Source: Nemertoderma westbladi
Taxonomy: Eukaryota; Animalia; Xenacoelomorpha
NCBI GenBank assembly: GCA_032718475.1
Contig: JAUCBJ010001161.1
Coordinates: 1 to 64,000, forward strand
DNA: 64,000 nucleotides
Direction: 5' to 3'
A program made the translations under genes and the position numbers. Below the pieces are notes generated by a model, which made no database searches, was not told where the DNA came from, and was given only the letters and a program-made list of their open reading frames with translations. Below, in pieces: positions 11,413 through 32,370 of this stretch. Within the stretch, counting starts at the first letter, position 1. Each line of letters starts with the position of its first letter.

Positions 11413-14400
11413 TCACGTTGGGGAGTCCCTAGATGTTTGAGGAATTAGGGAGGTGGTAGTGGGAAGAGTGTCTTGCCTTCCATAGTTTCCGGAGAGTTCT
11501 CTGTCTCTTTCCAGTAAACATAAACGACCAACTGGGCGATTGAGTTGTTGCGTCTCAAAGATTATGCCTGGCTTCTTGAAGTTACGCCGCATGACGATGA
11601 GTTCTACTGAGCGTACTAAACCATCATCCGAGATGTGGGTCTCGATGATACGACCTGTCTGCCACCGTTTACGTGGGAGGTCTGGATCTACAATAAGCAC
11701 CATATCTCCGGCGCTGACGTTTTCTTGCTGCGCAAACCACTTAGTTCGAAGTTGTAGCGTGGGCAGATAATGTTTCTCGAAATGGTCAGCGAAACGACGG
11801 GATAGCAACTGCATAAGTTGCCAAGTTCGACGGCAGTATTCGTCTCCGTCGGCAATCTCCGATCGTGGGAGCATGGTTACAGGTTTCTTCAGTAGGAAGT
11901 GCGCGGGTGTTAGCGCTTCCAGGGAATCGGGACTCGATGAGACTGGCATAAGCGGTCTCTCGTTGAGATAGGCAGCTATTTCCTCCATTAACGTCCGCAA
12001 AAGTTCGTCGGTGAGATACGCGAGGCATGACACTATAAAGTGAAATGCGGTCTTGACACTTCTAATTAATCTCTCCCAACTTCCTCCCCACCAAGGTGCG
12101 TCGGCGGCGTTGAAGGTCCAGCTAGACGCTGTTATCCTTAGCTGATCGTCCACCTGTCTTTGGTTCCAGTCCTTCACGTAAGCCTGTATTTCGTTATTGG
12201 CACCAATGAAGTTCGTTCCCTTATCCGATCTCATGGTATTACTCGTCCCGAAACGAGCGATCCGTTGGCGTAAACTTAAGACGAAGCTGTTGTTAGATAG
12301 ATCGTTCACCATATCGAGATGGATGGCTCTACAAGTCATGCATACGAAGATGACACACCATCTCTTGACTATAGTCCTAGCACGATATACTTCAATAGGG
12401 CCAAATAAATCTACACCAGTATTAGTAAAAGGTGGTTCATAGAAGCTTACTCGTTCCCTAGGTAATTCTGCCTCTCGCTGTGTTAAAGGCCTACTGAATG
12501 CTTTCCTACAGGGTATGCAGTTCCTAAGAACTTGGTTCAGAGCTCTACGGGGTTTATCAAAATAATAGCGAGTTCGAATTTCGCTAAGAACTCGTTCTCT
12601 ACCAGCATGATAAAGTTTACTGTGAACATCTACAATCATCTTGATTTGTACTTCAAGATTTCTAATGAGTATGGGAAATTTAGTGTCAAAGGATAAGGGC
12701 GCGTTGGTGAGCCTTCCTCCAACACGTATTAACCCATCTATCATTGTGCTAGAGAATCGATCCCTTAAGCGCATCTGCGGATTTCTCAACAACAGGAAAT
12801 ACTTTTCGGAATCCTCATAGCATTGCAGGAGTCTCAGTATCTGCTTATTGGTTTCTTCATGCTCCTGGTGACTAATTTTCTCCTTTAGAAAACGGTCAGA
12901 TGTCTTATATTTTGGTAAATTTTTAATAACATGAACTTGCGCAGATGTCAATGGAGCGATATCACTAATGGTCTTCGTCCTGGAGTAGTGATGATGAAAA
13001 CATCTCCTTAAATACGTGATGGCTTTACAGAGCCGATTCCAGGAACTGTAGTGATGCATTGTTTGCTGCAGCAGGGGTGAGATTCCTTGCGAGATGTCAG
13101 GTATTTCAGATTTCCAGTCTCTATCTCTAATTTCCACAACAGACTTATTTGTGTTGAGGGATTGTGGATCCGAAGCATCATTCCCGGAAGTATGTAATAC
13201 AGATAGATCGATAGTCGGTTTAAATAACTTCGATTTACTCGCCCGGGTTTTAGGTTTGACTGTCTCCGCTCCCTTGGCTTGTCTAATATCCGCCGTAGTA
13301 AGGTGAGGAGGCCATTCATCCTCTTCCTTGCTCAGGAAGTCGGGTCCACCCAACCAGTCTGGAGTATCTATCAGTTCCTGTGGAGTTGCTCCCCGAGAGG
13401 CGATATCGGCTGGATTAATCGTACCAGGGCAATGTCTCCATTGATCTATCTTTGTGCGACTAAGAATAATAGCTACCCTGTTAGTAACAAAAACGCTGAA
13501 CTGGCAGACTTCATTGGTTAGATACTCCAACACGAGTAAAGCGTCGGTCCAATAAACCGTTTTCTCCAGTGGATAGTCGATTTGTTCCGTTATGTTCCGG
13601 CCGATGGCTGTAGCGTATAAAGCCGCCTTTAACTCCGCTCGAGGAACCTTTAACTTGTTGTTAATCAATGCCTTAGAGGTAACCAAGGCGACTTTGATTC
13701 CATCCGGAGTTTCGACTCGCAGATATGCTACTATACCTATTCCCATGTCGCTGGCGTCTCCAAACACATGGAGTTGATAGGAATACGTAGGAAGAACATG
13801 ACCAAAATATGCACGGGAAATTATAAAGTTCTCGATGGCAGGTAGAGAATCTTCCCATTTCATCCATTTCTTTAACAGTTCTCCCTTAAGCGGATCGTCC
13901 CATGAGTGGTTTTCAAGCCACATTTGTTGTACTAAACTCCGAGCAATCAATATAACTGGGCTAATAAATCCCAATGGGTCGAAATAAGTGCTCAGGATAC
14001 TTAAACAAATCCGTTTGGTCCGAACTGGATTATCTCGCTGTTTTAGCTGAAAAAACAGGATGTCTCTTTCAGTGTCCCACTTCAAGCCAAGCGTCTTGGT
14101 TTCTGGAAGATCGTCCTTTATTAAGTCTAGGTCTTTCGTTCCTCGGTCTTCTACCGGTATCGCTTCCAGAAACTCACGGGAGTTGCTAGTGAATTTCGTC
14201 AGTCGAAATCCACCTCTTTTCAAACACTCTACCGTTCCTTTCGCGACATCAATGGCTTCTTCTACTGATGGAAGGGACCTTAAATTATCGTCCATGTATA
14301 TATTACGCTTGATGTTGTCTATCACCTCTTTTGAGAAGGAGTCTCGGTTGTCATTCGCAGTGGTTCGCACCACGGAGCAGGCGTTGGAAGGACTAGATAT

Positions 14401-17400
14401 GATCCCAAAAGCCTGGATGGTCATCCAGTACTCTATCGGTTTCTGATTGAGGTCTCCTTCAGGCCACCACAGAAATCTCAGGCTGTCTCTATCTCTATCC
14501 AGCGCCTTGACTTGTAAGAACATTCCTTCTATATCGGAGGCGAACGCGATGGAATATTGTCTTAATCTTAAAAGTATTCCCAACAAAGATTGGAGTAAGT
14601 TGGGTCCTGGTAACAACTCGGAATTGAGGGATTGGCCCATATATAGCGCGGAGCCATCGAATACGACTCGTACTTCATGGGGTTTACCGGGTTTGGGAAC
14701 GTAATGATGTGTTAAGTAATACGTTCTCTCCGTCACTGGTGTTCCTTCCGGTACTCGCTCCGCGTATCCCTTTGTTATAAATTTCTTCAGCTGAGTTTGG
14801 TACATTTCTTTAGCTGAAGCATTAGCCGTAAGGCGTCGATGCAATTGAGCGATTCTTTTCTCTGCCAAGGGTCTGTTATTTATAAATCTAGGTTCTCGTT
14901 TTCGAAATGGTAGGCCGATTTCATATCTACCTTGGTCCTTTAAAAAACGTGTAGTTGTTTCCTGGATTTGCTTGGCTCTTTCTTCTTCTATCGATAGAGC
15001 CTTATCGTATGAATTGGGCTCTACCAGTTCTTGAGTAAAGAATCGTACGGCTAGTTCGTCCCGAGTTCTAGCGTTGTAGCGCTCTATCTCATCGTTTAGT
15101 TCGTCATTGTAAGCAATGGGTTCCGATGGGCGAATCAGTTGACATAGGTTCACCTGATTTTTCCAAGTTTGGTTTTCTGTAAGTAGGTTGATTGTGTTCT
15201 CTTCTTCAAAGAGTTGGTAGATGTCGTCATTATCTGAGGAGTATGGTGTTCCCTCAGTTAGTTCGTCCACCTCACTGCTCTCCACTTCCCAATCGTTTAC
15301 TTGGTATATTTGTTCTTGTGGCATTCTCTTTTCGAGAGTCCTGCGGGAAGGGCCAGTAAAGTACCAACCTACTCTAGTTCTTACCGCATAGGTTTGCAGT
15401 GGCTGCGGTTGAGCAGGCCGTTTCTCCAATGTCTCGAGCGCCTCATGCGCGTTTTGGCCGATGAGTATTTGCACTCCAGGATAATCTGTCTGGAATCGAG
15501 GTATCTTAAGATGTTGGATGCTCTCATCCTCGTCCCAATTATAAAGGTCTGCTTGAGTAGTAGCGAAGTTCTTTATAGCCACCATTTTTACCGACCTTAT
15601 ACCTTGTGCTCCTAATTTATCCTGGGGGGTGGACAACACACCTACATAGTAATCTGCCGTTAGGGTAGATTTCCAAACCTGCATAATTCCTGACATATTC
15701 AATTTAGTCCGGAATTTAGGTTGTCCAGCAAAGATATCTTCGGCTAGTTCTTGATCGATGAATGTTCCTGTGCTGCCGGAGTCAAGGAGTACGTTCACTA
15801 TGTAACTTTTGTTAGGACCGTGAACTCTTACCTGCACTACAGGAAATTCTATGATTCCTACGTTGGAAGTTGGAGCTTTCCAAGATGGTTGTCTGGCAAA
15901 AGTAGTTGGGGGAAACTCATTGTTGGTGTCCTTTTCATAAGTAAGTTCTCGATACACCGCGGTATTGATTAGATAACAGGATTCGTTGGCGTCGGAGAAT
16001 TCGTCAGTATAGAATCCTTCCATCTCAGATTCTTGATCAGTGTCATTTACATCACTGAATTGGACAATATGTAGTTCGGGCTCACTTACCTGACTCGGGT
16101 TGTCTCGTTCGAACTCACTGTGTAACAAGATGTGATGTTTCGCGCTACACTTTGCACACTTTACGTCGGAGTAACAGGTTCGCCGTTGGTGTCCTGGTCT
16201 GAGGCAATTATAGCATAACCGCTTATCCCACACGACTGCACGTCTGTGTACAAGAGATTTCTTTAGAAATTCAGCACACGCACTCAAACGGTGGGTCCCG
16301 TCGCACAGCGCACAGTTAGGTTTTATGTTACTCACTTTACCTTGGGTAACCTGATGCACTCTCATTCTTTCTTCGGGCTTTCTTCCGTGCATTCTGTTAG
16401 GAGACTGAGGAGGGGTCTTGGCAACCTGTTCTCTCCTATCGTTGGTTCGAGCCTTATATTTACTTACGTCTTTTGGGGTTTTGTTAACGTAGTAAAATTT
16501 GTCAGTGTCTTTCCCGCTGTCCTCTTCTTGAGAAGCTTGGCTTTCGCCGTCGTCAGTGTAACACACCGGTGTGACTCTTCTCCTAGAAACGGGTTTCTCA
16601 CTTACCTTATTTTCCGATGTTTTTTCTCTGGACTGCTTGATGAGTTGTAGTTTCACTTCACCATCTAAGAAGGACATGAGATCAGTCATGGTAGGGCTTC
16701 GTCGTTGCTGTTCATTCATGTACAACACTTTCTTGTCCCAACGGGTACATACTCCACCCTTTGGTAAAGTAGAGACTACTGCTCCAATAACCATGGAACT
16801 CTGATATTCATGAGACTTACCTAACCAGTCCAATTGTCTACAGATCTCCTGAATCTCATCGGAAAACTCTATAATCACGCTACTAAGGAAGTTTCGGGGG
16901 GCTACTAATTTTGCATACAAATACTTAGCTATGTTATCCTTGTTACCATACCTGATGTTTAATGTATCCCAAACTTGTCTTAATCCTTCTGGATGTCCAA
17001 TAAACTTTAACGCCATTAACTTGGGAGGTCCTTCCAAGCACTTGATGAGGAACCTAAGTTTCTCGCCGTTAGATAGCACAGAGTTCTGTATGCTGTCTTT
17101 GTAATATTCGTTGAAAGGTAACCATTTCATCTCATCTCCATTGAATTTGACGATCTCTCCCACTTTGACCGCTTGGCGGGCTTCTGTTCTAGCCATCTGA
17201 TGCGTAAAGCTTTCTTGGGCCATCGTGTTATTTAATATCGAATTATCGGTATATAAATTTCTCGGATCATTATCAGGTCTATAGGGAATATCATTAACAA
17301 CAGGTCTATAATCACCCTTAATAGGGTTTGCTATAGGAGTTTCTACTTCACTAGCAGTATAGATGCGTGTAGGCTCCACACCTTGCGCATGTAATACTTC

Positions 17401-18189
17401 AGACCTAACAGGTTGACACAATTTTACAGGGGGTATTGGTATACCATTTTGTATATTGACTAATTTGTCGCGTTCTAGCGCGATACTTTGCTGCACTTCT
17501 TGCAATTCTGCCCTACCTTCCCTTACGGTTCCCTTAAGTTGGTGGACAGTCTCCTGCATCTGTCCGAGCAGGAGATTCATCCCCCGCCGTCCCTCCTCTA
17601 CCCACTCGACCGCCGAAGCGGGAGTCGCCAACATTGTAGCGGGCTGACGCGGGACGACAGGAGACAAATCTTTGATTTCTCTCTCAGCTTCCAGGACAGG
17701 GATATTCTCATGGACTGTTCTACCGGGTACAGGCAGTGTAGTACTGTGTAAAGGGAATTTAGAGTTAAGCTCTGGAAGTACTGGGGTCTCTAGCACAGGA
17801 GTGACTTTGGGAACGACAGGCCTAATTATTTCAGGCTCATCAACTATGGTAGGGAGTTTTTTGACCTTAATAATTTGGTCTGTAGGTTCTATACTACTTA
17901 AGTCTGTGCTAGCTAGTTGCCTTCTAACAGCTGGGGGCAAATCAGGCAATTTGTGACGGTAAGATGTTTTTCTACGCCTGCTTAGACGAGATCTATTTCC
18001 TCCGCCTTCAGGATCGGTGGTTTCGCTTTCCTCCGATGATGTATATCCCTGGCGTTTGGGAGTAGATCTTCTCATCATCTGCATGTGACTAGCAGTTAAC
18101 TGTTTATTTATGTTGTCTTGCGTCTCTTGCAGATTTTCCAACTCTAGTTGGGTAGTCTCCTCAGACGCTCTCAGTTCTGCTTCTGCCAC
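11413..18189 (-). CDS. Gag-Pol polyprotein of BEL/Pao element A (gag, three Zn knuckles, protease, RT, RNase H, integrase)
   Basis: 2258 aa uninterrupted; KFNGDEMKW gag motif, CALC/CYNC/CAKC knuckles, LLDSGS, YMDD, LHVFGDAS, HHCC, VDLFG/SDKGTNF/GSWER; true start uncertain (see +1 frameshift finding). Confidence 0.96.
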   Translation of the reverse strand: MAEAELRASEETTQLELENLQETQDNINKQLTASHMQMMRRSTPKRQGYTSSEESETTDPEGGGNRSRLSRRRKTSYRHKLPDLPPAVRRQLASTDLSSIEPTDQIIKVKKLPTIVDEPEIIRPVVPKVTPVLETPVLPELNSKFPLHSTTLPVPGRTVHENIPVLEAEREIKDLSPVVPRQPATMLATPASAVEWVEEGRRGMNLLLGQMQETVHQLKGTVREGRAELQEVQQSIALERDKLVNIQNGIPIPPVKLCQPVRSEVLHAQGVEPTRIYTASEVETPIANPIKGDYRPVVNDIPYRPDNDPRNLYTDNSILNNTMAQESFTHQMARTEARQAVKVGEIVKFNGDEMKWLPFNEYYKDSIQNSVLSNGEKLRFLIKCLEGPPKLMALKFIGHPEGLRQVWDTLNIRYGNKDNIAKYLYAKLVAPRNFLSSVIIEFSDEIQEICRQLDWLGKSHEYQSSMVIGAVVSTLPKGGVCTRWDKKVLYMNEQQRRSPTMTDLMSFLDGEVKLQLIKQSREKTSENKVSEKPVSRRRVTPVCYTDDGESQASQEEDSGKDTDKFYYVNKTPKDVSKYKARTNDRREQVAKTPPQSPNRMHGRKPEERMRVHQVTQGKVSNIKPNCALCDGTHRLSACAEFLKKSLVHRRAVVWDKRLCYNCLRPGHQRRTCYSDVKCAKCSAKHHILLHSEFERDNPSQVSEPELHIVQFSDVNDTDQESEMEGFYTDEFSDANESCYLINTAVYRELTYEKDTNNEFPPTTFARQPSWKAPTSNVGIIEFPVVQVRVHGPNKSYIVNVLLDSGSTGTFIDQELAEDIFAGQPKFRTKLNMSGIMQVWKSTLTADYYVGVLSTPQDKLGAQGIRSVKMVAIKNFATTQADLYNWDEDESIQHLKIPRFQTDYPGVQILIGQNAHEALETLEKRPAQPQPLQTYAVRTRVGWYFTGPSRRTLEKRMPQEQIYQVNDWEVESSEVDELTEGTPYSSDNDDIYQLFEEENTINLLTENQTWKNQVNLCQLIRPSEPIAYNDELNDEIERYNARTRDELAVRFFTQELVEPNSYDKALSIEEERAKQIQETTTRFLKDQGRYEIGLPFRKREPRFINNRPLAEKRIAQLHRRLTANASAKEMYQTQLKKFITKGYAERVPEGTPVTERTYYLTHHYVPKPGKPHEVRVVFDGSALYMGQSLNSELLPGPNLLQSLLGILLRLRQYSIAFASDIEGMFLQVKALDRDRDSLRFLWWPEGDLNQKPIEYWMTIQAFGIISSPSNACSVVRTTANDNRDSFSKEVIDNIKRNIYMDDNLRSLPSVEEAIDVAKGTVECLKRGGFRLTKFTSNSREFLEAIPVEDRGTKDLDLIKDDLPETKTLGLKWDTERDILFFQLKQRDNPVRTKRICLSILSTYFDPLGFISPVILIARSLVQQMWLENHSWDDPLKGELLKKWMKWEDSLPAIENFIISRAYFGHVLPTYSYQLHVFGDASDMGIGIVAYLRVETPDGIKVALVTSKALINNKLKVPRAELKAALYATAIGRNITEQIDYPLEKTVYWTDALLVLEYLTNEVCQFSVFVTNRVAIILSRTKIDQWRHCPGTINPADIASRGATPQELIDTPDWLGGPDFLSKEEDEWPPHLTTADIRQAKGAETVKPKTRASKSKLFKPTIDLSVLHTSGNDASDPQSLNTNKSVVEIRDRDWKSEIPDISQGISPLLQQTMHHYSSWNRLCKAITYLRRCFHHHYSRTKTISDIAPLTSAQVHVIKNLPKYKTSDRFLKEKISHQEHEETNKQILRLLQCYEDSEKYFLLLRNPQMRLRDRFSSTMIDGLIRVGGRLTNAPLSFDTKFPILIRNLEVQIKMIVDVHSKLYHAGRERVLSEIRTRYYFDKPRRALNQVLRNCIPCRKAFSRPLTQREAELPRERVSFYEPPFTNTGVDLFGPIEVYRARTIVKRWCVIFVCMTCRAIHLDMVNDLSNNSFVLSLRQRIARFGTSNTMRSDKGTNFIGANNEIQAYVKDWNQRQVDDQLRITASSWTFNAADAPWWGGSWERLIRSVKTAFHFIVSCLAYLTDELLRTLMEEIAAYLNERPLMPVSSSPDSLEALTPAHFLLKKPVTMLPRSEIADGDEYCRRTWQLMQLLSRRFADHFEKHYLPTLQLRTKWFAQQENVSAGDMVLIVDPDLPRKRWQTGRIIETHISDDGLVRSVELIVMRRNFKKPGIIFETQQLNRPVGRLCLLERDRELSGNYGRQDTLPTTTSLIPQTSRDSPT

Positions 18190-19468
18190 CGCTGCCTTTT
18201 CTTTCTGCTTCTGCTGCTGCTGCTGCCTTTGCTGCTTCTGCTGCTGCCTTTGCTGCTTCTGCTTCTGCCGCCGTTACTGCTGCTGCCTTTCGGTCCTCTA
18301 TCCGTTTTTTCTTTACTTGTTCTTCTTGGACTCTAGCGAGGCGGAGTTTTTCATCAAATTTAGCTTGGTTTGCAGCTAACATTTCCGCATCGATTGCGTC
18401 CAACACAAGCTTGGTTCCTTCACTATTAGGGCGAAGTCCAGACAGTCGTCTCCTCAACTCTTCGTCTCCTAGGAATCGTTGATAGTCTGACAGATAGATG
18501 TCTATGGCGTCTCTCGAGGGCGGCTTCTCTGCTGGTGTCTCTTCGCTTTCCATTTGAGAAAGGGTGGCATCGGTTGGTTCTTCATAGGTTGGTCTCTCAG
18601 TCAGCTGGGATTTCCACTGAACCGTTTCTTGAACTTTGAGACCTACCCGCTGGAACCAAGTCTTGACAGCAACTTGCAGCGACGTGTCCTGTCTTCTTTT
18701 GGAAGTTTCCTCAAAGGCTGATAGGATTAGTCTAATGCGTAGGGTTCTTTCACGTACTTGATATAGCAGCTCTTCCTGCTCTTGAGGTCCTTGGGGTTGT
18801 CGAAACAGTTGTTCTTCTAATCGCTCTAAGGAGCCGAAGAATCCCTGCACATATCCTGCTGCCGACCTCTTCCAAACAGCTGGATCCATCGTATCTTTAG
18901 CCACTCCCATCCTGTGTATCTCTTCCCAAGTAGCTTCGGACAAATCTAACGGGAGTCCGGGTCCGGGAAAGTTCCATTGTGACTCGACAATAGACATCAA
19001 TTCTTCCCTGGCGTATCCCGCATAACTATCTTGGGTCGCTCGCTTACTTCTCGCCCAATCGGCTTGATGTTCCTCCACCGCCATCAATATAGTAGTTAGT
19101 ACTGCGGCAGGAAGGGTGAGAAGGGGATCCGAGTAGGCTGTAGCCGCCATCTGCACTCCGCGTTCGGGGGTCAGCTCTACAGTATCCGAACTACTGGAGC
19201 TATCTGATCGCTGGGAACAAGTTTCTTGACTAGGATGTTGCTGCGGTTGGACAGCTGCTTCCTGGTTCCGTTTGACTTGGGCCCGAGTGCCGATGATAGA
19301 CCTACGGTGTTGGATTAGCTTAGGGTCTGATACTACTACTGGAGGGATGACCTTTCTTTCAGTAGGAGGTGAGCTGAACTCCTTTCTTAATCGCTCCACA
19401 CTCCTATCTGTGTCACAGATGGTTGTATCGATCAGACTGTCTGACAGGTTTTGCTGGGTGTCAGACAT
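18161..19468 (-). CDS. Upstream ORF1 of element A (helical/coiled-coil; probable N-terminal part of Gag)
   Basis: 435 aa starting with ATG; homologous ORF in B (50901-51734); overlaps Gag-Pol, which is in the +1 frame. Confidence 0.8.
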   Translation of the reverse strand: MSDTQQNLSDSLIDTTICDTDRSVERLRKEFSSPPTERKVIPPVVVSDPKLIQHRRSIIGTRAQVKRNQEAAVQPQQHPSQETCSQRSDSSSSSDTVELTPERGVQMAATAYSDPLLTLPAAVLTTILMAVEEHQADWARSKRATQDSYAGYAREELMSIVESQWNFPGPGLPLDLSEATWEEIHRMGVAKDTMDPAVWKRSAAGYVQGFFGSLERLEEQLFRQPQGPQEQEELLYQVRERTLRIRLILSAFEETSKRRQDTSLQVAVKTWFQRVGLKVQETVQWKSQLTERPTYEEPTDATLSQMESEETPAEKPPSRDAIDIYLSDYQRFLGDEELRRRLSGLRPNSEGTKLVLDAIDAEMLAANQAKFDEKLRLARVQEEQVKKKRIEDRKAAAVTAAEAEAAKAAAEAAKAAAAAEAERKGSGGRSRTESV

Positions 19469-21237
19469 GTTTAGCTATACGGTTGAATGCCTACTGCTAT
19501 AGTTACAGTTAAAGCACGTCTAGTAATTCAGTATGACCGTTGGCCTAGTACCGGTAATTTATTGCAGTATATTAGAATACCGATATACACCTATAGTATA
19601 TATAAGTATTGTAAACTAGGTTTGTCACAGAGTACCGGTATATAGTTTTAACACAAATATATAAATATATAATAGGCCTATCGTGAATACCGGTATACAG
19701 CTTACACTTATAGTATATATAAGTATAATTATGAACTAGAATTAATTACAGAATACAGGTATGATTTCAGCCCAAATTTATAGAAATAAATATAATAGGC
19801 CTATGGTAAATACCGGTATGACAATTATTTTAGAATAATTGAATTTCTGAATATTTTAGGGTTACTTGGTTACTTTAACTTACTTTATTACCGTTATTTA
19901 AGCAGCAGCCCAACCGATATTGAGACCTAGTTGTTGTATGGCAGGCCTACTACTTATAAATCGTTTGAGTTGATTTATAATATTTATATACCCGTTTAAA
20001 ATGGGTTTTGTCAATATTTGAAATAAATGTTATTATTTCTGGGGGGTCACTACACAGAAGCTGTGCGCTCTCAGTGAAGTGCTATTTATTGGACACTAAA
20101 ACAGATAATTCTAATTTACCTAAGTTACTTAATACTACAAATTACTTACGATACGGGTGAGATTAAATCTCTAATTAAACACAACAAAAATATTACGTAC
20201 GAAATTTTAGGGTAATTTTACAGGAAGTCTACAAACCAGCCTAACAAAGGGTTAGAATTCTGGTTATTACAACGGACAGGGTACTATGGTATTTGAAAAT
20301 AATAAGTAGTAGTAAATATATTGCACTGTCCAGATAGGAAAATACCACCGCCTGACGACCTATAGCCGTATCGCTATAGGTACTACGTTATGTATCACGG
20401 AGTGTTCCTACCTGGAAGTTAATTACCGCGGACTACCAGATCCAACGTGCCTATTAACCACTTTACAACACAAATATACTGCCTACACACTAATTACTTT
20501 CGGAAAGCACTGTACACTAAACCCTAAATTAGGTACAAGTACTGGTACAACAAATAATCAGTAGTTAAATATACTTGAACAGTTAAAAGAACCACGGCAT
20601 CTGCTGGAGTGACCGGAGCACAAAGTCACCAGTCTTTACCTACGCCAAGCAGCCCGTGTAGTACCGGGGTTAATTTAACTATAACGGTATGTGTAACAAG
20701 CACAATTACTGTAGGAATAAACTTGGGGACATGAATGTTGCGAATAATCGCATAAACTCTGAATAATAAATATTACGCTACCCGTACAGAATACTCAAAC
20801 AAAATACAAACCAAATGCTGGCAGACTACCACCAAGCCTAAATAAACTACAGTATGTGCAGATTCCAAAATGGTTAGTTACTATGCGTTCTAACACGGTA
20901 GTACGACTTATTCTTTAAGAGGGGATTGACCTTACAGCTATGGCTGCCCCAACTTACTAACTGGCACTCTATCGGACAAACTCTACACACGCCGCAATCT
21001 CTCCAAACCCAACAACAATCCGACAACAGTCCGGCCTACAGTTATCTGAACAATCTGAGCAGACTTACACGTCTTCAGCTCAATATTAACTTACTAGGAA
21101 ATAAAACTGACAGAAATAGACCTAAGTAAAATCCCAATAAAAACCAGGCGTCCCCGATTTAATATCGAGACCTACCGGTATATAATTATCAAAATCGAAT
21201 AATACTAATGTACTTATACTGGAAGTACCGGTTAGGA

Positions 21238-21462
21238 CAGTTGGGCCTACGGACCTACAGCAGTACCGATTCTGGCAGTTAGGCCTACGGACCTACAGCA
21301 GTACCGGTTCTGGCAGTTGGGCCTACGGACCTACAGCAGTACCGATTCTGGCAGTTGGGCCTATGGACCTACAGCAGTACCGATTCTGGCAGTTGGGCCT
21401 ACGGACCTACAGCAGTACCGATTCTGGCAGTTGGGCCTACGGACCTACAGCAGTACCGGTTC
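21238..21462. repeat. 38-bp tandem repeat (about 6 units) in the leader of element A
   Basis: CAGTTGGGCCTACGGACCTACAGCAGTACCGATTCTGG at 21238, 21276, 21314, 21352, 21390, 21428. Confidence 0.95.
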
Positions 21463-21516
21463 AGGTTTACCGGTCGACCGGTACTTTCAACTTTATTGCT
21501 TACTGCAATAAAGACA

Positions 21517-21527
21517 ATAACTGTTAT
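21517..21527 (-). promoter_or_regulatory. Non-tRNA primer-binding-position 11-mer of element A, complementary to LTR site 22287-22297
   Basis: Minus strand ATAACAGTTAT directly after the 5' LTR with no TGG; exact complement inside the LTR. Confidence 0.7.
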
Positions 21528-22724
21528 TGTACGCGCTTTTGAAGACCTTTAGCAGTTTAACCTGCCAAAATTTATATGTCTTTTGGTTTATAAATAGACT
21601 TTAGAAATTGACAAATATTTAGTACCAATAAACACAACATTAGCAGAAGCCAGCCTAGTGCGCGTCCATTCACCCGCTGGATATACCCGGGAGACTGGAT
21701 TCTGAGGGCTTAGATTATTATTGCAGTGTAAGCTTACTGTATTATTCGATTGATCGTTAATAAATAATTTCTGACCAATATTATTCACTTTCGGGAAATA
21801 TTAACAGTTCCTTTAGGACGTGGCGCTCTATCTAGGTAAACAGAGATATGACTTATACTAATCACAACGGTAAGTCGGTAAGGCTTATGATTCACGTATG
21901 AGGCGCATTCTTTAGGAAATGCTTAGTTATCAGTCACAATCATGCACACTACCGGTAACACACAATACTGCTCACTAATTTGCCGACCATCAATGAATTT
22001 TATCATATATAAAGAGAATAGCAACTGACTCATGTAGTGCTTATCAAATAGCATTAAATTCACTACAAACCACAATAATATAAGTCGCAATCGCTATATG
22101 TAACCCATCTCTCTAACCTGTAGTGTATCAAGAAAATTGGGAAATTTGGGTTCTTTATAAATGTTCTCCAAATAATATTCAACCAACTGATACAAAATAT
22201 GACAATAGTAAAAAGCATTAAGACAGTAGGTTAAGATATGATATGACAAGCAGATTGATATGTTATGTGAGTTGTGTTATGTTAAGATAACAGTTATACG
22301 CTCTATAATCTTAAGCCTACTAATGTTTCTTCTAAAGTCTGAAACGAATTGACTCTAGAGCCGGTGTTCCTGGCCTAGATAGAAACAACACAACAGTATC
22401 AAGAAAAACAGTAAGACTGAACCCTACTAGCATGATCTGCCAAAATGTCCACATCGACAGAAAAAATCGCTCTGATTGGCTGTTAAGCTAAACAAAGAAC
22501 CATGTGTCCAATGGCCGTTTCCATGTCAGCTACCAGCTGTTAGATGTCGTAATCTGAATCATCAAGGCTAAGCTGTGCCAGGGTATTTGACGCATTGCGG
22601 GTTTTTTGCCTTACCATGTCCACCAAAGCACACATATAGAAGAATGACTTTTATGTCCGTTAAAACACCTATAACGGTACCTTGCGGGCGAGGGGGACTG
22701 AGTATATCCGCAAAAGCTTTTACA
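21528..22724 (-). repeat. 5' LTR of element A
   Basis: 1197 bp, TG...CA; CCAATCAG box on the minus strand near 22473-22480. Confidence 0.96.
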
Positions 22725-23123: not shown

Positions 23124-24857
23124 CTAAAACCCTCCAGGTTTGTAAGCGGAATCGTTGTTTTCCTGGCGGAATTTCTTTGATCTGCGTTTGAGGAGGCTTC
23201 GTGAAGTTCTCTTGCGGTCTCTCACCTTGCACCCTGTCGCCATCTTCACCCCAGGCCCCAGGCCCAACTTCATATACAGTATCTGAGCTGCAGATGAACC
23301 CCTGTTGTGCACAAGTGCAGTATAATATGCATGGAATTCCAATGTTGTTCTTCCCTGGAACTTATCCTTCCCACATTTGTTCCAAAGTCGACCATGAATA
23401 GATTCGTTTTGGTTCTGCGTGAGACCAGGAAGGCAATGCTTCAATAGATTCCGATCTGTAAGTCTATTGTATACGGGCATAATGTGGGCATGCCACTCCG
23501 GCTTGATGAAGGATTTGTCCTTGTAGGTTTGGTCTTTCTGGATCGCTTTGCACCACCGTATTGGACAATCCTCATGTTTTCTTTCCCGCTGAAATTCTGG
23601 GTAATTCGTGTAATGAAATACAGTAGCTTTCACCTCGCGTATTATGGTGTCAATGAGGTTCTCCAGTTCGTCTGGGTCTATTGTTCGGTAGTCTACAGAA
23701 GATACATGGTGAACAACAGTGTTCCGGTAATAACTGGCTAGTTGTCTGATCCGTGGCTGAGAGAGCCCATTCACACCACCGATCCTTTTTTCTTTACGGA
23801 CTGATTCAAGGCCATTGGTTACTCGTTTAGCGATATGGTTAATACACTCATATTTCTTTACTGGGTGCTCGATGCCATATGGAGGGTTCTCTCGGAGCTC
23901 TTTGAAAACAGAACTGTCTCCATCGCTTAGCAGCTCTGTATATCGCAACCTGTTCCTTTCAATGGATCTTGCCCAAAGTTGCTTCGCAGCAAAAGTTTCC
24001 ATGGCATTGCTACTGCCACGGAATTTTACGTCACAATTATGTTGCGGTACGTGTATAGTACAAAGTTTAGAATAATGGCGGCAAATATAACATGATTTGC
24101 TGACAACAAAAATATCTAGAACTGCGCCGGTATCAGCAGACATCACATAGGCCACACAGTAAAGGGACATATGCCCACGTTTCTGCCAAGTGGCATCAAA
24201 AGTAACAGATACATTGTATATTGACTCACTATTACCAGAGATAGGGTTACCTGTATCTGCCCCATACTTATTACGCAGCTTCTGAGCTTCATTGTAACAA
24301 TTACCAATCGACAGGTTTCTAACAGCATCAGTAATTCGCCTAAGAGTAACTCTCCAGCGACTATGATTGACAGGATTTGGCATTTCCATCGCCTCCGAAA
24401 ATCTTCGAGCAGTGTCATGTGTTCCCCCAATCATAAGAAACGCTAATATACAGTAGTACGAGTGTTTATACGGCGCTTTGACTCATTAGGATGATTGCTT
24501 ATATCATTGACTACATTTTCGAATTTATAAATATATTCACATGTCTCACATTCAAGAAATATATTGAAATAAAATCCGTTTTGGAGATTTGGAGTAAACT
24601 TCAGAACACCGCCGCAGTGATGTCGATGAATGTCGGACATACAATCCTTCATGGTTGAATATTCGACAAACTGGAATCCTTCACTTCCAATAAGAGGACC
24701 CTTATGCATCCCCAGTCACTCCAAGACGATCAGTCGTATGGGAACTCTGATTCGCTTCGGGAATCAGATCTGACTCCTCAACTGGTAGATTAACATTTAC
24801 GATTTCCTGTTTTCTAGTACCTGCAAAAGTCCCCTTCCGCCCACCCAGTTTTGGCAT
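23124..24857 (-). pseudogene. Kolobok / Mutator-like DDE transposase, frameshifted in the N-terminal part
   Basis: VTFDATWQKRGH...TGAVLD..VVSKSC, SSNAME, LLSDGDSS, ECINHIAKR, TQNQNES; N-terminal pieces at 24443-24709 and up to ATG 24857 are in other frames. Confidence 0.85.
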
Positions 24858-25460
24858 TCTTGTTCGCGCTTTTAGACCTTTGGCAGTTTAACCCGCCAAA
24901 TTAGGATGTCTTCTAGATAATAAATCGATTTTAGCCTCTGACAAGTATTTGATTCACTACACTAGTCGAAACCAATCTGTGCGCGATCATTCACCCGCTG
25001 GATATACCCGGGAGATTGGGTTCGACGGCTTAATCATATTGCTATGTAAGCCTACTGTATTATTCGACTGATCGTGTTATATAATCTCTGACAATATTAT
25101 TCACCTTCGGGGAATATTAGCAGTTCCTTTAGGACGTGGCGCTCTATCTATATAAACAGAGTTATGACTTAAACTACTCACAACGATATGGCTTAGTTAT
25201 AATTCACATATATGGCGCATTCTTTAGGAAATGCTTCGTTATCAGTCTCACTCATACACAATGCTGCACAATACTGCACACTAATCTGCCGATCTTCACT
25301 GATTTTAGTCACATATAAAAGGAACACAGACCGACTCATGTAGGGTCTATCAAATAACATTAGATTCACTTCAAACCACTTTAACATAAGTCGCAATCGT
25401 TATATGTAACCTGTCTCTCTTACCTTCGGTATATCAAGAATATTGGGGTTTCGGGGTTAT

Positions 25461-25930
25461 TGTGATAGAAACCCTCTATCATTGGTCTATATAGGACCTA
25501 ACTGTTAATAATGTTTGTGTTCATTTATAATTCAAATTAAGTATATTCACATTCAGTAATCATAATCAGTGTTTTGTCAGTGTTATAAAGTATTTAGTGT
25601 ACTGCTGTACTGCCTACAGCAATTACTGCTGTAGGCCTATATATTCGTACCTAACATGTCTGTATGTGGTATGTGTTGTTAGCCTATTATATAATATGGG
25701 AGTAGGTGAATGGGTACATCTACCTATAAAGATTAAAGGATTAATATAACTTTATGTTTATGTAAATATTCATTATTATCATTTGTCAGAAGTCTGAACC
25801 TTGATATAGGAACTTATATGGATATATCATACAGTCATAATGCTGTCCTGCTGTCAGCTGTAATGTCATATCAGCAATCAGCATATCTTATACAGTTATA
25901 ATCATACTTCTGCACTCAATATCCATGACA
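25461..25930 (+). repeat. 5' LTR of element C
   Basis: TGTGATAG...CATGACA, repeated at 32371-32840. Confidence 0.97.
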
Positions 25931-25946
25931 TGGCGCCCGATAAGGG
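25931..25946 (+). promoter_or_regulatory. Canonical tRNA primer-binding site of C (Lys-like)
   Basis: TGGCGCCCGAtAAGGG directly after the LTR; resembles the tRNA-Lys PBS TGGCGCCCGAACAGGG. Confidence 0.8.
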
Positions 25947-26602
25947 GAAGGCTACCGGTACGGACAAGTAAAGACAAAGTAAAGAGTAAAGACTTGGACT
26001 GATGGTGAGTTTCTATGTTCTATTCCAGTATTTAGAAACGTCGGCTGAAACAAGAACAAGTTTGTACCGGTGTGTTATTCTACATTCCAGTATTGCTGCA
26101 ATTTCATTGACTTCTGAACTTTGATTAGGCAGTTAGGCCTAAGTGCTAAGGCTGTAAGGGTAAGGTATCCCTGCAATTTCGGCTTTTATTGAAAGTACAG
26201 CTGTCTGGATGTACCGTACATCAGGCCAGGCTCCCATGATTGAGAGGCCAGTCTGACACTGACAGTGCGGTGTGTAATCAATATTAATTATTCACTAATT
26301 TATATGAGAGTATAGCTTATACTGGGACACGCCCAGGCTACCAGGCCTATTGCAGTTAGACTGGTGACTGGTAACTATTGTCTGATTGTTTCAGCATTAT
26401 ACTAGCAATTTACATTCATCAAATTTATCAATCACAAATCAATGCTGAAAAATGAGAATGGTTGCAAATTTAATTAATGAGACACAGCAGAACTGATCAT
26501 AGGACCGGTTCATTACTAAATTTAAAACATACCTATACACTATGCTATACCTACCATACAGCCATAGGCAGCTAGCTAGCTAGGAAAGGAAGACACAGAA
26601 TA

Positions 26603-29600
26603 ATGGCTACACAAATAAATGAATTGGTGAAACTAAAACGCAAACGCAGTGGGCTGAGATCCACTGTAACAACAATTAGAAACAAATTTAACCCTGATGA
26701 CACAATAGAGACAAATCGAATTACTTTAGACAGACTCGGACTCCTTTTACCGCGCCTAGACGCCATAAATGAGGACATTTGGGGACATCTTGACCCAGAA
26801 ACCCAAGAATTTGAGAATGATGTTGCAGTAGCTGGGGATTATGAGACTGCTATTCGCTCATTAATAAAACAGATAGAGCCAATAATAGTACCAGCAAGTG
26901 TGAGTGTAAATCTTAATGACAGCAATGCAGCTGCTATGGCAGACCTATCATCAGTGGTACAAACTCAACAATCATATTTTGACTCTCGTCTTTTGGCACA
27001 ACAAGTTTTGCCAAAATTGGCGCCACCTACTTTTGATGGAAATTTGTTAAATTATGAAGGGTGGAAAAATGCTTTTACAGCTGCTGTGGAAGATTCCAAA
27101 CTTCCTAACATAATCAAATTCCAGTATTTATTGGAAAGCTTGAAAGGACCGGCCAAAGCAGTAGTGGCAGGTCTACCAATTAATGAAGGAAATTATTATG
27201 TAGCAATGCAGCTATTAACTACCCGCTATGGAGATAAGGAGGCAATAATTTCTGCACATATCGAAGAGATAAGGAAAATTGGTCGATCTACAACAAAACT
27301 TAGGGATATAAGTGATAAATGTTTGACACATGTAAGAGCATTAGAGGCTTTGGGAATTTCGCCGGTCGAATATCAACGTGTAGTCATTCCTGATATAACA
27401 GCTGGGGTTAGTGATACTATAATGTTGAAATTGCTGGCAGAAAAACGTTCAATTACTGATTTAGATTGGCTAATAACAAAATTGCAAAAATTTGCATTGG
27501 CTGAGGAATCTCTCAGCTTAATAAGACAAGATTCACAAAGAAGTAAATGGTCATCAAGCAAAGAAAAACAAGCGGTACCAACGTATTCAAAACCAATAAA
27601 TCAGCCAGCTATTGCTTCTCTTGTGGCTCCATCACACTCGAAATCTGGGAAAACTATTTACAATTCATCCTATAAACAGAATAAAGCAACAAATAGTACC
27701 CCAAATTCATCACAACCTCAACCTAGATTACAAAACTCATCATCATCAAGCCAACCATTTGTAATAACATGTGTTTATTGTAACCAGAATCATTATTCAG
27801 ACAATTGCCGAATAGTTCAAGATAATATACTCCGACGAAATTCATTAGAAGAAAAGGGGCTGTGTAAAATTTGCATTAGGGGAAATCACAAAACATGGGA
27901 ATGTAGAGCGACATGTAGATGTTACTATTGTAAAGCTACTTCTCACCATTCAAGTATTTGTCCTAATAAAGTATATACTGGAACAAATGCATCTAAATCA
28001 CCAATAGTAACTTCAACAAACACTCAACCTAATGTAAATTCAGATTTAGTTACCAAATCAAAGTCTTCAACATCTGTTGTCGCCATAAGCCATAAATGTG
28101 TGGATCAAAGTTGCGCCAACTCTGAAGATGTATTATTACAAACCGCAATTTTGGATTGCGAAGGTAATGATCTTCCTTACAACTTAAATGCTTTATTTGA
28201 TGGTGGAAGTCAGAAAACGTATATTATCAGATCAGTTGTGAATCAGTACAGATTACAGGTCATAGGCAGTGAAGAGGTTAACATAAGTGGGTTTGGAAAT
28301 ACATCAATGCCATTGACATGTGAAATAGTGCAGGTTAATGTAAAACTTCGTTCACAAGGTATTGAAACTCTCCAAGCTTGTGTAGTTGATTCAATTTGTA
28401 AACCAATATACAATGGATTTGTATTAAATGACAAATTAACCAATTTAATGGAAGAGTTGGACTTAGCTGACCCATCATTGCGTTCACCTGGTAACTTATT
28501 TCCAATTGAACTTCTAATAGGAGGAGACCAGTATTGGTCAATAGTTTCAGGGTCTATTTTGCGTAAATCAGCTACTCTACCAGTGGCACTCCATTCATCA
28601 GTTGGTTGGTTGCTATCTGGTCCTGTTCCTCATACAGTTAGTGAGGCACAAGAACTTACTATTATTCCAACCTCAATGACAATGTGCACGTCCACAGTAA
28701 ATGTCAATAACACAAATAATCACAATTTAAACAAAAATTTATATCAATTAATTGAGTCATTTTGGTCAATGGAATCAATTGGAATAACAGACGGGGTAAA
28801 TGATGAGGAAACAGTGGATTTAGGAATTACTAAGTCAAACAGCATATATTATGTCAAGTTACCATGGAAAATGCCAAAGAATGTACTTGTTGATAATTTC
28901 AATCATAGTTACAACATTTTATTGTCATTGATAAAGAGATTAAATAAATCTGGTTTATTGTCAAAATATAATGATGTTATGATGGAACACTTAAAACATG
29001 GCTACATAGAACATGTCAGCATTGACTCTCCAGTTGAAAATGGTAGAATAAAACATTACATTCCTCACCATGGAGTTATCCGAGAAACAGCAACCACAAC
29101 TAAACTAAGAGTTGTATTCAATGCTTCATTTAAACCGTTGCGTCACACACTGTCATTAAACGATTGTTTACACAGAGGTCCAAATTTGTTGCCTAATTTG
29201 GTAACTACTTTAATTCGCTGGAGGCTATATCGCATTGGTATCATAGCCGATTTAAAACAAGCGTTTATGCAGTGTGGAGTAGTTGAAGAAGACAGAGATG
29301 TACTGCGATTTCTGTGGGTGGATGATATTGATAAAGTGAAAACAGGTCAACAGCAAATCATAGCATATCGATACACAAGAGCAATGTTTGGAGTGACAAG
29401 TTCACCTTACATTTTGAGAAAAGTTTGTACAGAGCATCTAGAAGAAGAAAGAAATATATGTAAGGTAGAAGAAGTTGAAAGGTTAGATACTATAAATAAA
29501 TTAAAAGATCTTTATATGGATGATCTTGCAACTGGAGTAAATACTGAACAGGAAGGTATAAACTTATATAAAATAGCAAAAGAAATAATGAAAAAGGCAA

Positions 29601-32293
29601 ACTTTGAAATTCATAAATGGAATACAAATAGTAATGTATTACGTCATTATTTTCATTTAGAAGAAAATGGTTCAGCCACTATGGTAATAAACTCATCAGT
29701 TCCATTGATATTTGAGGATAATGAAACTTATGCAAAGAGCACATTACCAATTCCTCAATCAACTAATAGCAATGTCACAAGAGTACTGGGTCAACCTTGG
29801 AATGTTGATAGTGATATTCTGACATTTGATTTTAAGGAGGTTTATAATTATGCATTAAAAATTCCAGTAACTAAACGAGCAATTGTACAGATTTCCGCTC
29901 GTCTGTATGATCCAATTGGATTTATTGCACCCTTTGTTACACCATTCAAAATAATATTCAGGAAATTATGTATTGATGGTGGTGACTGGGATGATAAACT
30001 ATCAGAAGAATTGAAACAAAAATGGTCAAAGTTAATTCAAGATTTGCCATTATTGAACCAGATTGCGATCCCCCGATATTTATTCACAGGCAAATCTATA
30101 GTATATGCTGATATACATGGGTTTTCCGATGCAAGTTGTAACATGTATGCTGGTGTTATTTATCTTCGCACGTTCTACACTGACAATACAGTGTCTGTAT
30201 TATTTGTTATAGCAAAGGCTAAGATTGCACCTAAATCTCAACCATCCATTCAAATTCTGGAGTTGCTTGGGGCTCTTATTACTTCCCAATTGATTGACTT
30301 CGCACATAAATCAATTACAATTCCCATTCGTAACACCATTCTTTGGATTGATGCATTGGATGTCATATATTGGTTGAATATAGAGAACCCAGACTATAAG
30401 CAATTTGTTAGAAATCGAGCAACTAAAATAAAGCAAATTGGAAGTAAATTTAATATGAGGACCAGATATGTACCAGGAAATGAGAACCCCGCGGATGCCC
30501 CAACTCGGGGTTTGTCAGCTAAACAATTAATTGAATCCAAACCTTGGTTGAATGGTCCAGAATTTCTCTGTAAATCAGAAGATTGTTGGCCTTCTATTCC
30601 TTCACAATTTCAACAAGAGGATACTTCAAAAGAAGTATCATCGGAAAGTAACCTAATACACACAACTCTAATATCATTAGCTTCATCAATGGAAAATAAA
30701 ATAACAACTGGGTTGTTCAATATCATTCAAATGGAAAATTACTCACTGTATGACCCTAGATCTAAACAAAGATTACTTGCTGTAATAGCTTGGATTTGTC
30801 GTTGGAGTAATAATATTAAATCAAAAATTTCAAACTCAGGATGTAATATATCTTTTCCCTATCTTGCTGCTAAAGAAATATACATGGCAGAAATTGTGGT
30901 AATTGTAGCTACACAGAGTGTATACTATTCTAAAGAATGTAATTATCTGAAGAGTGGAGAAAACAAACAAATAGAGAAGATACCTCCGCTTGTAAAACAG
31001 CTAGGTTTATTCTTGGATAATAATAACGGAGTCATGAGATGTAAAGGACGAATTACAAACTGCTCTATATCATGGTATACTCAAAACCCAATTATACTGC
31101 ATCCTGAAAGTTGTTATACTCAAATGTTAATACTAGATGCACATATTCAGATGTGCCATGCTAGAACAAGAGAAACATTAGTACAATTAAGAGAAAGATT
31201 TTGGCTACCAAGAGGACGACAAGTAATTAATCGTATATTGAAACATTGTTATGTGTGTATGAAAGAATCAGCAAAGCCCTACACTGAACCGGAAGTTAGC
31301 CCACTACCTGCTTCAAGAGTTTCAATTGGTGTGGGAGTATTTGAACATACAGGAGTTGATTTTTGTGGTTCTTTCAATGTGGTTGAAGATCCCTTAAATC
31401 TAGCTTTACACAAAGGAAAATGTTACATATCTATATTCACTTGTGCAGTAGTAAGATATTTGCATATAGAAGTGGTTCCATCATTATCTGCTAAAGCGTT
31501 TATTAACTGTCTAAACCGATTTATTGGTAGACGAAGAATCCCAACCCTCCTTTACAGTGACAATGCATCAAACTTTAAAGCAACTGCAAAGGAACTACGG
31601 GTTTATAAGTTGTTCTTTGAAGACCCAAATGTTGTCCGAACTTTTGGTAAACTAAATATGCAGCATGAATTTAATGTTGCGAGGAAACCATCTGCTTTTG
31701 GATTTATTGAAAGAATGGTAGGAACCTTGAAAAACTGTCTTCGTAAAGTTATTGGTCGTTCCATTCTAACATTAGACGAAATTCAAACAGTGGCTGTTGG
31801 CATAGAAGCTATGATAAACAGTCGGCCATTGACGTATGTAAACGACTCACTTGATGATTTTTCGATGTTAACACCAGCTCACTTTATTACTGGTAAACGT
31901 CTTTGCTCATTACCAAATCCGACTATGAAAGTTACCAAACAATTAACAACTCACACCAAACTACAAAATCGACTTCAATATCGTGAGATAGCGATGAACA
32001 CATTCTGGTGCCTTTGGAGGGATGAGTACTTGAAGGAGTTACGAAATCAACACAGATATAACCATCATGCGGAACCAGGTGATCGAGTTCCGGTAGTAAA
32101 TGATATTTGTATTCTACGAGATAGTAACTTGCCAAGATGTATGTGGAAATTATGTAGGATTGAAGAGTGCATCTTATCAAGAGATGGACGAATACGTAAA
32201 GTTCGTGTTGTTATAGCCACTAGAGGGAAAGAAGCTACGTCGCTAGTAAAACCATTGCATTTACTTTATCCTCTCGAAGTCAGGAACATTTAG
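26603..32293 (+). CDS. Gag-Pol polyprotein of BEL/Pao element C
   Basis: 1896 aa; PTFDGN gag motif, three Zn knuckles, LFDGGS, YMDD, IHGFSDAS, HHCC, VDFCG/SDNASNF/GFIER. Confidence 0.97.
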   Translation: MATQINELVKLKRKRSGLRSTVTTIRNKFNPDDTIETNRITLDRLGLLLPRLDAINEDIWGHLDPETQEFENDVAVAGDYETAIRSLIKQIEPIIVPASVSVNLNDSNAAAMADLSSVVQTQQSYFDSRLLAQQVLPKLAPPTFDGNLLNYEGWKNAFTAAVEDSKLPNIIKFQYLLESLKGPAKAVVAGLPINEGNYYVAMQLLTTRYGDKEAIISAHIEEIRKIGRSTTKLRDISDKCLTHVRALEALGISPVEYQRVVIPDITAGVSDTIMLKLLAEKRSITDLDWLITKLQKFALAEESLSLIRQDSQRSKWSSSKEKQAVPTYSKPINQPAIASLVAPSHSKSGKTIYNSSYKQNKATNSTPNSSQPQPRLQNSSSSSQPFVITCVYCNQNHYSDNCRIVQDNILRRNSLEEKGLCKICIRGNHKTWECRATCRCYYCKATSHHSSICPNKVYTGTNASKSPIVTSTNTQPNVNSDLVTKSKSSTSVVAISHKCVDQSCANSEDVLLQTAILDCEGNDLPYNLNALFDGGSQKTYIIRSVVNQYRLQVIGSEEVNISGFGNTSMPLTCEIVQVNVKLRSQGIETLQACVVDSICKPIYNGFVLNDKLTNLMEELDLADPSLRSPGNLFPIELLIGGDQYWSIVSGSILRKSATLPVALHSSVGWLLSGPVPHTVSEAQELTIIPTSMTMCTSTVNVNNTNNHNLNKNLYQLIESFWSMESIGITDGVNDEETVDLGITKSNSIYYVKLPWKMPKNVLVDNFNHSYNILLSLIKRLNKSGLLSKYNDVMMEHLKHGYIEHVSIDSPVENGRIKHYIPHHGVIRETATTTKLRVVFNASFKPLRHTLSLNDCLHRGPNLLPNLVTTLIRWRLYRIGIIADLKQAFMQCGVVEEDRDVLRFLWVDDIDKVKTGQQQIIAYRYTRAMFGVTSSPYILRKVCTEHLEEERNICKVEEVERLDTINKLKDLYMDDLATGVNTEQEGINLYKIAKEIMKKANFEIHKWNTNSNVLRHYFHLEENGSATMVINSSVPLIFEDNETYAKSTLPIPQSTNSNVTRVLGQPWNVDSDILTFDFKEVYNYALKIPVTKRAIVQISARLYDPIGFIAPFVTPFKIIFRKLCIDGGDWDDKLSEELKQKWSKLIQDLPLLNQIAIPRYLFTGKSIVYADIHGFSDASCNMYAGVIYLRTFYTDNTVSVLFVIAKAKIAPKSQPSIQILELLGALITSQLIDFAHKSITIPIRNTILWIDALDVIYWLNIENPDYKQFVRNRATKIKQIGSKFNMRTRYVPGNENPADAPTRGLSAKQLIESKPWLNGPEFLCKSEDCWPSIPSQFQQEDTSKEVSSESNLIHTTLISLASSMENKITTGLFNIIQMENYSLYDPRSKQRLLAVIAWICRWSNNIKSKISNSGCNISFPYLAAKEIYMAEIVVIVATQSVYYSKECNYLKSGENKQIEKIPPLVKQLGLFLDNNNGVMRCKGRITNCSISWYTQNPIILHPESCYTQMLILDAHIQMCHARTRETLVQLRERFWLPRGRQVINRILKHCYVCMKESAKPYTEPEVSPLPASRVSIGVGVFEHTGVDFCGSFNVVEDPLNLALHKGKCYISIFTCAVVRYLHIEVVPSLSAKAFINCLNRFIGRRRIPTLLYSDNASNFKATAKELRVYKLFFEDPNVVRTFGKLNMQHEFNVARKPSAFGFIERMVGTLKNCLRKVIGRSILTLDEIQTVAVGIEAMINSRPLTYVNDSLDDFSMLTPAHFITGKRLCSLPNPTMKVTKQLTTHTKLQNRLQYREIAMNTFWCLWRDEYLKELRNQHRYNHHAEPGDRVPVVNDICILRDSNLPRCMWKLCRIEECILSRDGRIRKVRVVIATRGKEATSLVKPLHLLYPLEVRNI

Positions 32294-32360
32294 ATCAAAC
32301 TCTAATCAAATTTAGCCAAAGATTAAATGACTTTAATCAATTATTGAGACTGCAAGTCTC

Positions 32361-32370
32361 AAAGGGGGAA
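32361..32370 (+). other. Polypurine tract of C
   Basis: AAAGGGGGAA immediately before the 3' LTR. Confidence 0.85.

Follow-up and report, generated by a model that had tools for sequence, protein, structure and literature searches.

The window analyzed here, a single 64-kb stretch of DNA, is a nest of LTR elements. Element A (4272–22724, minus strand) spans 18.4 kb, and its 5′ LTR (21528–22724) and 3′ LTR (4272–5468), both on the minus strand, are 1197 bp long with TG...CA ends and differ from one another at 10 positions. The element has a 5-bp target-site duplication (ATTTC), and a purine tract lies immediately upstream of the 3′ LTR. Its gag-pol ORF (11413–18273, minus strand; 2286 codons) encodes DUF1759, a protease motif, a reverse transcriptase (RT) with a YMDD motif at 14287–14298, an RNase H region (Peptidase_A17), an integrase and DUF5641. 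Pfam matches were obtained for DUF1759, Peptidase_A17, DUF5641 and the integrase zinc finger, the domain order being PR-RT-RH-IN. PF05380 is present in all 120 of the best homologues listed, and the named best matches come from cnidarians, sea urchins, bivalves and fish. By its domains, LTR ends, target-site duplication and polypurine tract, A is a BEL/Pao element (Belpaoviridae), and the Pfam domains bear out the superfamily assignment made in the original prediction. Pfam returned no chromodomain match in A, which by lineage is not a member of the Tf1/sushi group. The domain order, TG...CA LTRs, 5-bp target duplication and purine tract are all shared with the Belpaoviridae (Semotivirus). According to the ICTV profile (PMC8742986), BEL/Pao elements are primed by host tRNA-Arg or tRNA-Gly at a site of 18 nt and have genomes of 4.2–10 kb; A, by contrast, lacks such a site, is 18.4 kb long and contains two extra ORFs.

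With respect to the remaining coding regions of A, ORF1 (18161–19474, minus strand; 437 codons from stop to stop) gave no match in a Pfam search and overlaps the start of gag-pol. The overlap is in a different frame both in A (18161–18273, minus strand) and in B (50901–51052, minus strand), which points to frameshifting or splicing within the N-terminal part of gag. The two extra ORFs lie at 9066–9815 (minus strand; 249 codons, no Pfam match) and 5547–9065 (minus strand; 1172 codons). The latter contains Cys/His knuckles and is predicted to carry a DEDDy-type 3′–5′ exonuclease-like domain. Specifically, the region at approximately 7005–7463 has an ESM Atlas feature score of 0.93 to PF01612 clusters, and residues resembling the DTE, D and YxxxE motifs were read by eye. 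The A protein gave no Pfam or PDB match; its one homologue, P0121 (E 8.9e-6), showed a weak PF01612 match (E 0.2) that was confined to P0121, and a homologue search with P0121 returned P0121 itself only. Two structure predictions of the exonuclease-like domain had pLDDT values of 29 and 31. According to the available text of PMC5408684, the bdelloid elements Juno and Vesta, which belong to other LTR lineages, have a DEDDy exonuclease ORF3 after pol, like the domain predicted in A; neither a PBS nor priming is discussed in that text.

Element B (24861–55215, minus strand) is approximately 80–86% identical to A across shared internal blocks and is missing RT, RNase H, most of integrase and most of the extra ORF. 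Its 5′ LTR (53996–55215, minus strand; target-site duplication ATTCT) is 1220 bp long, and its 3′ LTR (24861–33465, minus strand) is interrupted by element C and thereby divided into pieces at 24861–25460 and 32841–33465; there are 8 differences between the two LTRs over 1220 positions. Both A and B are retrotransposons that inserted recently. Element C (25461–32840, plus strand) is a BEL/Pao element with a TGG-type primer site at 25931. Element D (37413–47904, plus strand), also BEL/Pao, is nested inside B and has identical LTRs (5′ LTR at 37413–37946, plus strand, 534 bp; 3′ LTR at 47371–47904); Pfam matched its gag and protease and gave no match to an RT.

Several further features were recorded in the window. 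An ORF for a Mutator-like transposase (PF20700) lies between A and B at 23124–24482 (minus strand), and ORFs at 58222–59430 (minus strand) and 2149–3915 (plus strand) appear by eye to be non-LTR retrotransposon fragments, with no Pfam match at E 0.001. A further LTR of the A family (63719–64000, 95% identical) runs into the window end and is truncated there; since no primer site flanks it, this copy is a 3′ or solo LTR. The A leader contains, beyond its primer site in the downstream direction, a tandem array of ~38-bp units (21224–21465), with related repeats in B. The summed contig depth over the A U5 (21760–21861) is very high in two DNA runs, which suggests a large family.

Pairing of the primer-binding position with the LTR in A, B and D

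In A, the 11 nt at the primer-binding position (21517–21527, minus strand) abut the 5′ LTR with no spacer, do not begin with TGG, and are exactly complementary to a candidate self-primer segment at 22287–22297 (minus strand; LTR positions 428–438), after which the next base is C. A second copy of this 11-mer is carried by the 3′ LTR at 5031–5041. In B, the corresponding 11 nt (53985–53995, minus strand), again without TGG, pair exactly with 54741–54751 (minus strand; LTR positions 465–475, followed by C), and the copy in the B 3′ LTR begins at 32991. The segments lie 745–759 nt from the LTR end. These four 11-mers had been proposed as self-pairing partners from the letters of the DNA alone, and the feature itself is confirmed: in both elements, the start of the leader finds its longest own-LTR complement at offset 0, with a length of exactly 11 nt, and the A and B sites align with each other in a global alignment of the two LTRs, as expected of an equivalent position. 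Between A and B, positions 6 and 8 of the primer-binding sequence and positions 6 and 4 of its LTR partner differ, and both differences are compensatory, in agreement with the two co-varying pairs described originally. Likewise, A and B have no TGG-type primer site while neighbor C does; more broadly, no TGG that could mark an 18-nt site for a host tRNA 3′ end was found at or near the LTR end of A, B or D. The conserved box reported upstream of the segment was also recovered, as CCAATCAG at 22472–22479 in A (minus strand) and at 54909 in B.

Given two changes per side placed at random, two compensated changes would arise with a probability of ~0.002 (1 in ~500). The complement was present in 40 of 20,000 first-order Markov LTRs for A and in 17 of 20,000 for B; A and B are relatives, and these figures are thus not two independent chance events. 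Element C, which serves as an internal negative control, showed no own-LTR complement match. The blocks of the A/B LTR alignment are 37–81% identical, and conservation is higher in U5 (71–81%) than in U3 (37–57%). Among the 40 variant rows listed, of 227 from contigs aligned to A, none falls in either 11-mer, a result that is uninformative at this coverage. Of the 15 joint contig rows on A, three (from three runs) stop at 22286, the base immediately beyond the segment, which hints weakly at a divergence of related copies from this point. A splice-built primer was considered for A and B as well and was rejected: the best spliced match is 10 nt, has a non-consensus donor and reuses the contiguous site.

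A shorter pairing of the same type is found in D, an element that the original prediction does not mention, where the 9 nt at the primer-binding position (37947–37955, plus strand; no TGG) have an exact 9-nt complement at 37756–37764 (plus strand), again followed by C. This segment lies downstream of the CCAATCAG box, which in D is at 37637 (plus strand). The 9-nt complement occurred in 13 of 10,000 Markov LTRs; in a looser test that allowed offsets and splicing, 9 nt was reached by 34 of 342 cross-family pairs, and the evidence from D is to that extent weaker. In contigs aligned to D, none of 12 substitution rows falls in either 9-mer or in their flanks, so that they provide no evidence of covariation. 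Positions 72–80 of the D leader are a near-copy of the D primer site.

Self-complements and LTR introns in related elements

A profile of the RT–RNase H region of A retrieved 80 metagenome-contig loci with 38–44% protein identity, which group into 50 nucleotide families; three scans of viral contigs found no relatives. An LTR-like repeat is present at 34 of the 80 loci, the other 46 falling outside the pairing test. At 18 loci (15 families) the 3′ end of the LTR is set by the repeat edge, independently of pairing. The remaining 16 have a repeat without a fixed LTR end, and 12 of these were scanned blind (L048, L056, L062 and L080 were left out). In the fixed-end set, the 3′ LTR copy of 11 of the 15 families contains a self-complement of 10–15 nt, which forms across a GT–AG intron in 10 families and is contiguous in one (L065); L011 has 10 nt of self-complement in its 5′ LTR copy only. 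An own-LTR score of at least 10 was reached by 13 of 19 elements, as compared with 17 of 342 cross-family pairs, four of which are sister families with a common site. The blind scan found 10–14 nt at 9 of 12 loci, values equalled by 0–3 of 30 shuffles, and added five families.

Overall, 17 of 23 testable families are positive, with 10–15 nt, and in 15 of these 17 the complement is spliced, existing only across an LTR intron (L002, L007, L015, L018, L020, L022, L026, L033, L040, L046, L049, L051, L055, L073 and L075). All 10 donors in the fixed-end families read GTAAG, although the search demanded only GT. In L040 (1–214; 6768–7265), a 117-nt GTAAGT...TAG intron is exactly absent from the 5′ LTR copy and kept in the 3′ copy, showing that this intron was really removed, with an assembly chimera being possible; the spliced copy retains 79 nt upstream of the segment. 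No qualifying self-complement was found in 6 of the 23 families (L017, L019, L058, L034, L066 and L070). The two LTR copies of L017 carry lesions in opposite halves of the site, a TGG-type site is present in L019, and the LTR boundary of L058 is unsure; L067, one copy of a positive family, also falls below the score. In a quick, unfinished tree of 52 RT–RNase H rows, A is a long branch that joins a group of all self-complementary relatives (88% SH-aLRT), and C, L019 and L050, the last with a TGG site read by eye, lie outside this group. A single origin of the self-complement is possible.

The borders of the paired segment were compared across A, B, D and the 17 positive families, which are related rather than independent samples and together provide 235 Watson–Crick pairs, exactness having been demanded by the search. 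In each of the 20 families the pairing starts within 0–4 nt of the LTR end, and the 3′ border of the segment is conserved while its interior varies. The segment ends in AC in 17 of 20 families, in AT in A and B and in CT in one, and the following base is C in 16 of 20 against an LTR C content of 0.18. By analogy with Tf1, this A-pyrimidine/C border is suggestive of an RNase H cut site. The first base of the segment is A in 11 of 20 families and never G, and pairing past the 5′ edge is at the level of chance (47 of 180, with 0.26 expected).

In terms of where transcription begins, a block conserved between A and B in the global alignment (22298–22325, minus strand) lies directly upstream of the A segment and is likely a putative promoter or start-site element. 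A GGAYAY motif forms the last 6 nt of this block in B and occupies the same place in L018, L040, L055 and L075, and A is without it; no position-specific start-site signal was established across the 20 families. D has TATAA at 37690 and an initiator-like TCAGTT at 37717, signals that point to a start ~37 nt upstream of its segment. The original prediction had drawn on Tf1, where the first 11 nt of the transcript act as primer, and for D and L040 these sequence features argue against the segment being the very start of the RNA. Given the upstream signals in D and the 79 nt upstream in L040, transcription may begin at or upstream of the segment, and a primer longer than its paired part is conceivable.

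In 8 of 11 relatives, the segment is followed at a distance of 11–128 nt by a poly(A) signal. Neither AATAAA nor ATTAAA is present in the LTRs of A, B or D. Just downstream of the primer site, a local fold places a 9-bp hairpin in the A leader (21491–21513, minus strand) with AATAAA within its stem, a predicted structure that could mask a poly(A) signal. B has a related hairpin.

A proposed self-priming mechanism and its alternatives

In Tf1, the primer site is paired with the first 11 nt, and the RNase H cut falls between bases 11 and 12, as described in the available portion of PMC7175516. Since the LTR end is where a primer has to anneal, and since the element's own complement is the only one found for this position, we infer Tf1-like priming here as well; A and B thus likely prime like Tf1 though they are not Tf1/sushi members. 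The earlier proposal that the elements use their own RNA as primer has gained backing from D and from the 17 of 23 families, 15 of them intron-dependent, and is still one that we infer. A self-complement that forms only across an LTR intron is inexplicable by a tRNA, which strengthens this reading. Of the two routes originally offered, use of the 5′ copy is favored, both by the downstream poly(A) signals in 8 of 11 relatives and by the spliced 5′ copy of L040, and trimming of the 3′ copy is disfavored. We therefore regard it as probable that in A and B the segment of the 5′ LTR copy primes minus-strand synthesis once a predicted cut has freed its 3′ end.

In the mechanism that we propose, transcription would start at or upstream of the segment, and in intron-bearing relatives the 5′ copy would be spliced first, creating a segment that A, B and D would have without any need of splicing. 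The element RNase H would then cut after the paired segment at the common A-pyrimidine/C border, by analogy with Tf1, and the freed 3′-OH would be extended by RT across U5 and R. In LTR elements generally, the primer site is regenerated from the primer during plus-strand synthesis. The same step would here copy the primer back and carry any change in the segment into its partner, which would give exact Watson–Crick pairing and a sharp 5′ edge; since this would recur in each cycle, covariation would reflect copying as well as selection. B and D, being without RT, would be copied in trans while retaining the cis signal.

A different role for the duplex is conceivable, in which it is a structural or regulatory element (for packaging, dimerization or a translation switch, like retroviral U5–leader pairings) and some other primer is used. 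The weakness of the duplex in folding models fits this alternative: with a ~750-nt loop, the equilibrium duplex probability does not exceed 0.08 in A or 0.01 in B, and in D it reaches 0.83 only when the modeled RNA begins at the segment. It is also consistent with the flanking duplexes in A and B, where a search covering ungapped stems and one global fold gave no Tf1-type flanking duplex of at least 9 bp common to the two among the 12 strongest listed for each. Nonetheless, we consider a purely structural role unlikely, as the pairing sits at the primer position, 0–4 nt from the LTR end, in 20 of 20 families, its edge does not fray, its 3′ border is conserved while the interior varies, and A, B and D have no TGG site as a substitute.

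A second alternative retains the element's own RNA as primer and derives it from the copy in the 3′ LTR; the 3′ end of the RNA would be shortened as far as the duplex, perhaps through the exonuclease-like protein of A. The ORF with a predicted DEDDy-type 3′–5′ exonuclease domain would supply such an activity, and the upstream start signals of D and the 79 nt upstream of the L040 segment would fit a longer R. However, this assignment comes from features and motifs only, none of the 80 related loci matches the exonuclease-like ORF while 17 families pair, and B has deleted the domain, so that the ORF is not needed for pairing. Moreover, the 3′ copy of L040 keeps its intron and therefore cannot supply the complement, with the reservation that this contig may be chimeric. 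Trimming of the 3′ copy is accordingly a doubtful route, to which we give little credence.

Priming by a host tRNA or half-tRNA, with the LTR match as a relic or coincidence, appears very improbable. What we take to be a resemblance to anticodon loops in the 3′ seven bases, of aspartate for the D segment and of asparagine for the A segment, would favor it, but the B segment has C at a position where anticodon loops presumably almost always have U. The implied primers end in AC or AT rather than CCA. The primer sites differ from one another, and each finds its complement in the LTR of the same element, in many cases only once an intron is spliced out, a pattern not predicted by tRNA priming. 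ARAGORN and Rfam found no tRNA genes or Rfam families in the 64-kb window. Half-tRNA priming of the Ty5, Osser or Bianca type would call for a primer site complementary to the 5′ half of a tRNA. Half-tRNA priming does exist in some copia lineages, as noted in the available text of PMC6317226. Finally, a chance match in AT-rich sequence can be dismissed almost entirely: the A 11-mer is near-palindromic and AT-rich, and 4 of 960 other A leader positions reach 11–13 nt against the LTR, but the simulated frequencies (40 and 17 of 20,000), the aligned position, the two compensatory pairs and the recurrence in D and 17 families all speak against it.

Relation to known systems and significance

Returning to priming by the segment of the 5′ LTR copy, the closest parallels are Tf1, Tf2, Tj1 and the Tf1/sushi group, which, in the accessible text of PMC7175516 and PMC4600332, resemble A and B in having a non-tRNA primer site directly after the 5′ LTR and ~11 nt of own-LTR complement. 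Unlike these Ty3/gypsy chromoviruses, A and B belong to the BEL/Pao superfamily, their segment lies hundreds of nucleotides (745–759) from the LTR end, and an intron splits the segment in many relatives. They also differ from Tf1 in that the flanking duplexes of its three-duplex 'pretzel' structure, as presented in the available part of 10.1101/2022.12.06.519325, were not found in A or B. Self-priming is a demonstrated process in Tf1 and a proposed one in Tf1/sushi, Tcn1 and the copia TAR lineage, according to the portions of PMC4600332 and PMC6317226 available. For the TAR lineage (Houba, Osr-1) and Tcn1, which are plant copia or gypsy elements, it was likewise deduced from complementarity alone, so far as the accessible text of PMC6317226 indicates. 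Self-priming having arisen outside Tf1/sushi in TAR and Tcn1, a further case is less surprising. Fungal GalEa elements, with their Conserved Hairpin Site, similarly have no tRNA site after the 5′ LTR; in GalEa, however, the inverted repeat lies inside the leader and no LTR complement was found, whereas the partner in A and B is in the LTR (PMC5445492, available text).

No report of self-priming in BEL/Pao was found in the literature covered; subscription papers, Repbase notes and supplements lie outside this coverage and could mention it. The accessible text of the BEL/Pao surveys PMC3118150, PMC6238403 and PMC8556966 does not mention priming, and that of PMC554778 mentions PCR primers only. 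The available portions of further literature, including PMC3601003, PMC5341516, PMC6934838 and PMC8220671, likewise contain no BEL/Pao self-priming case.

Taken together, the observations tilt us slightly toward a broader reading. In this reading, a large clade of BEL/Pao elements from aquatic animals would have abandoned tRNA priming in favor of 9–15 nt of their own 5′ RNA, cut at an A-pyrimidine/C border and recopied in each cycle. Splicing of an LTR intron would build the primer in most families, A, B and D representing the intron-less form. As part of the same reading, with host splicing building the primer in most families, reverse transcription would come under splicing control.

BEL/Pao has received the least study of the LTR superfamilies, and its official description is of tRNA priming. 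If the proposed mechanism is true, it would carry Tf1-type priming into a third superfamily and a broad set of animal elements, and it would explain the missing primer sites in tRNA-based annotation of such elements. It offers a simple diagnostic, namely a complement in the element's own LTR, with or without an intron, and the exact predicted cut border makes the priming step testable through RNA ends. In relatives, the spliced version would tie splicing to the onset of reverse transcription, a connection that has not been reported.
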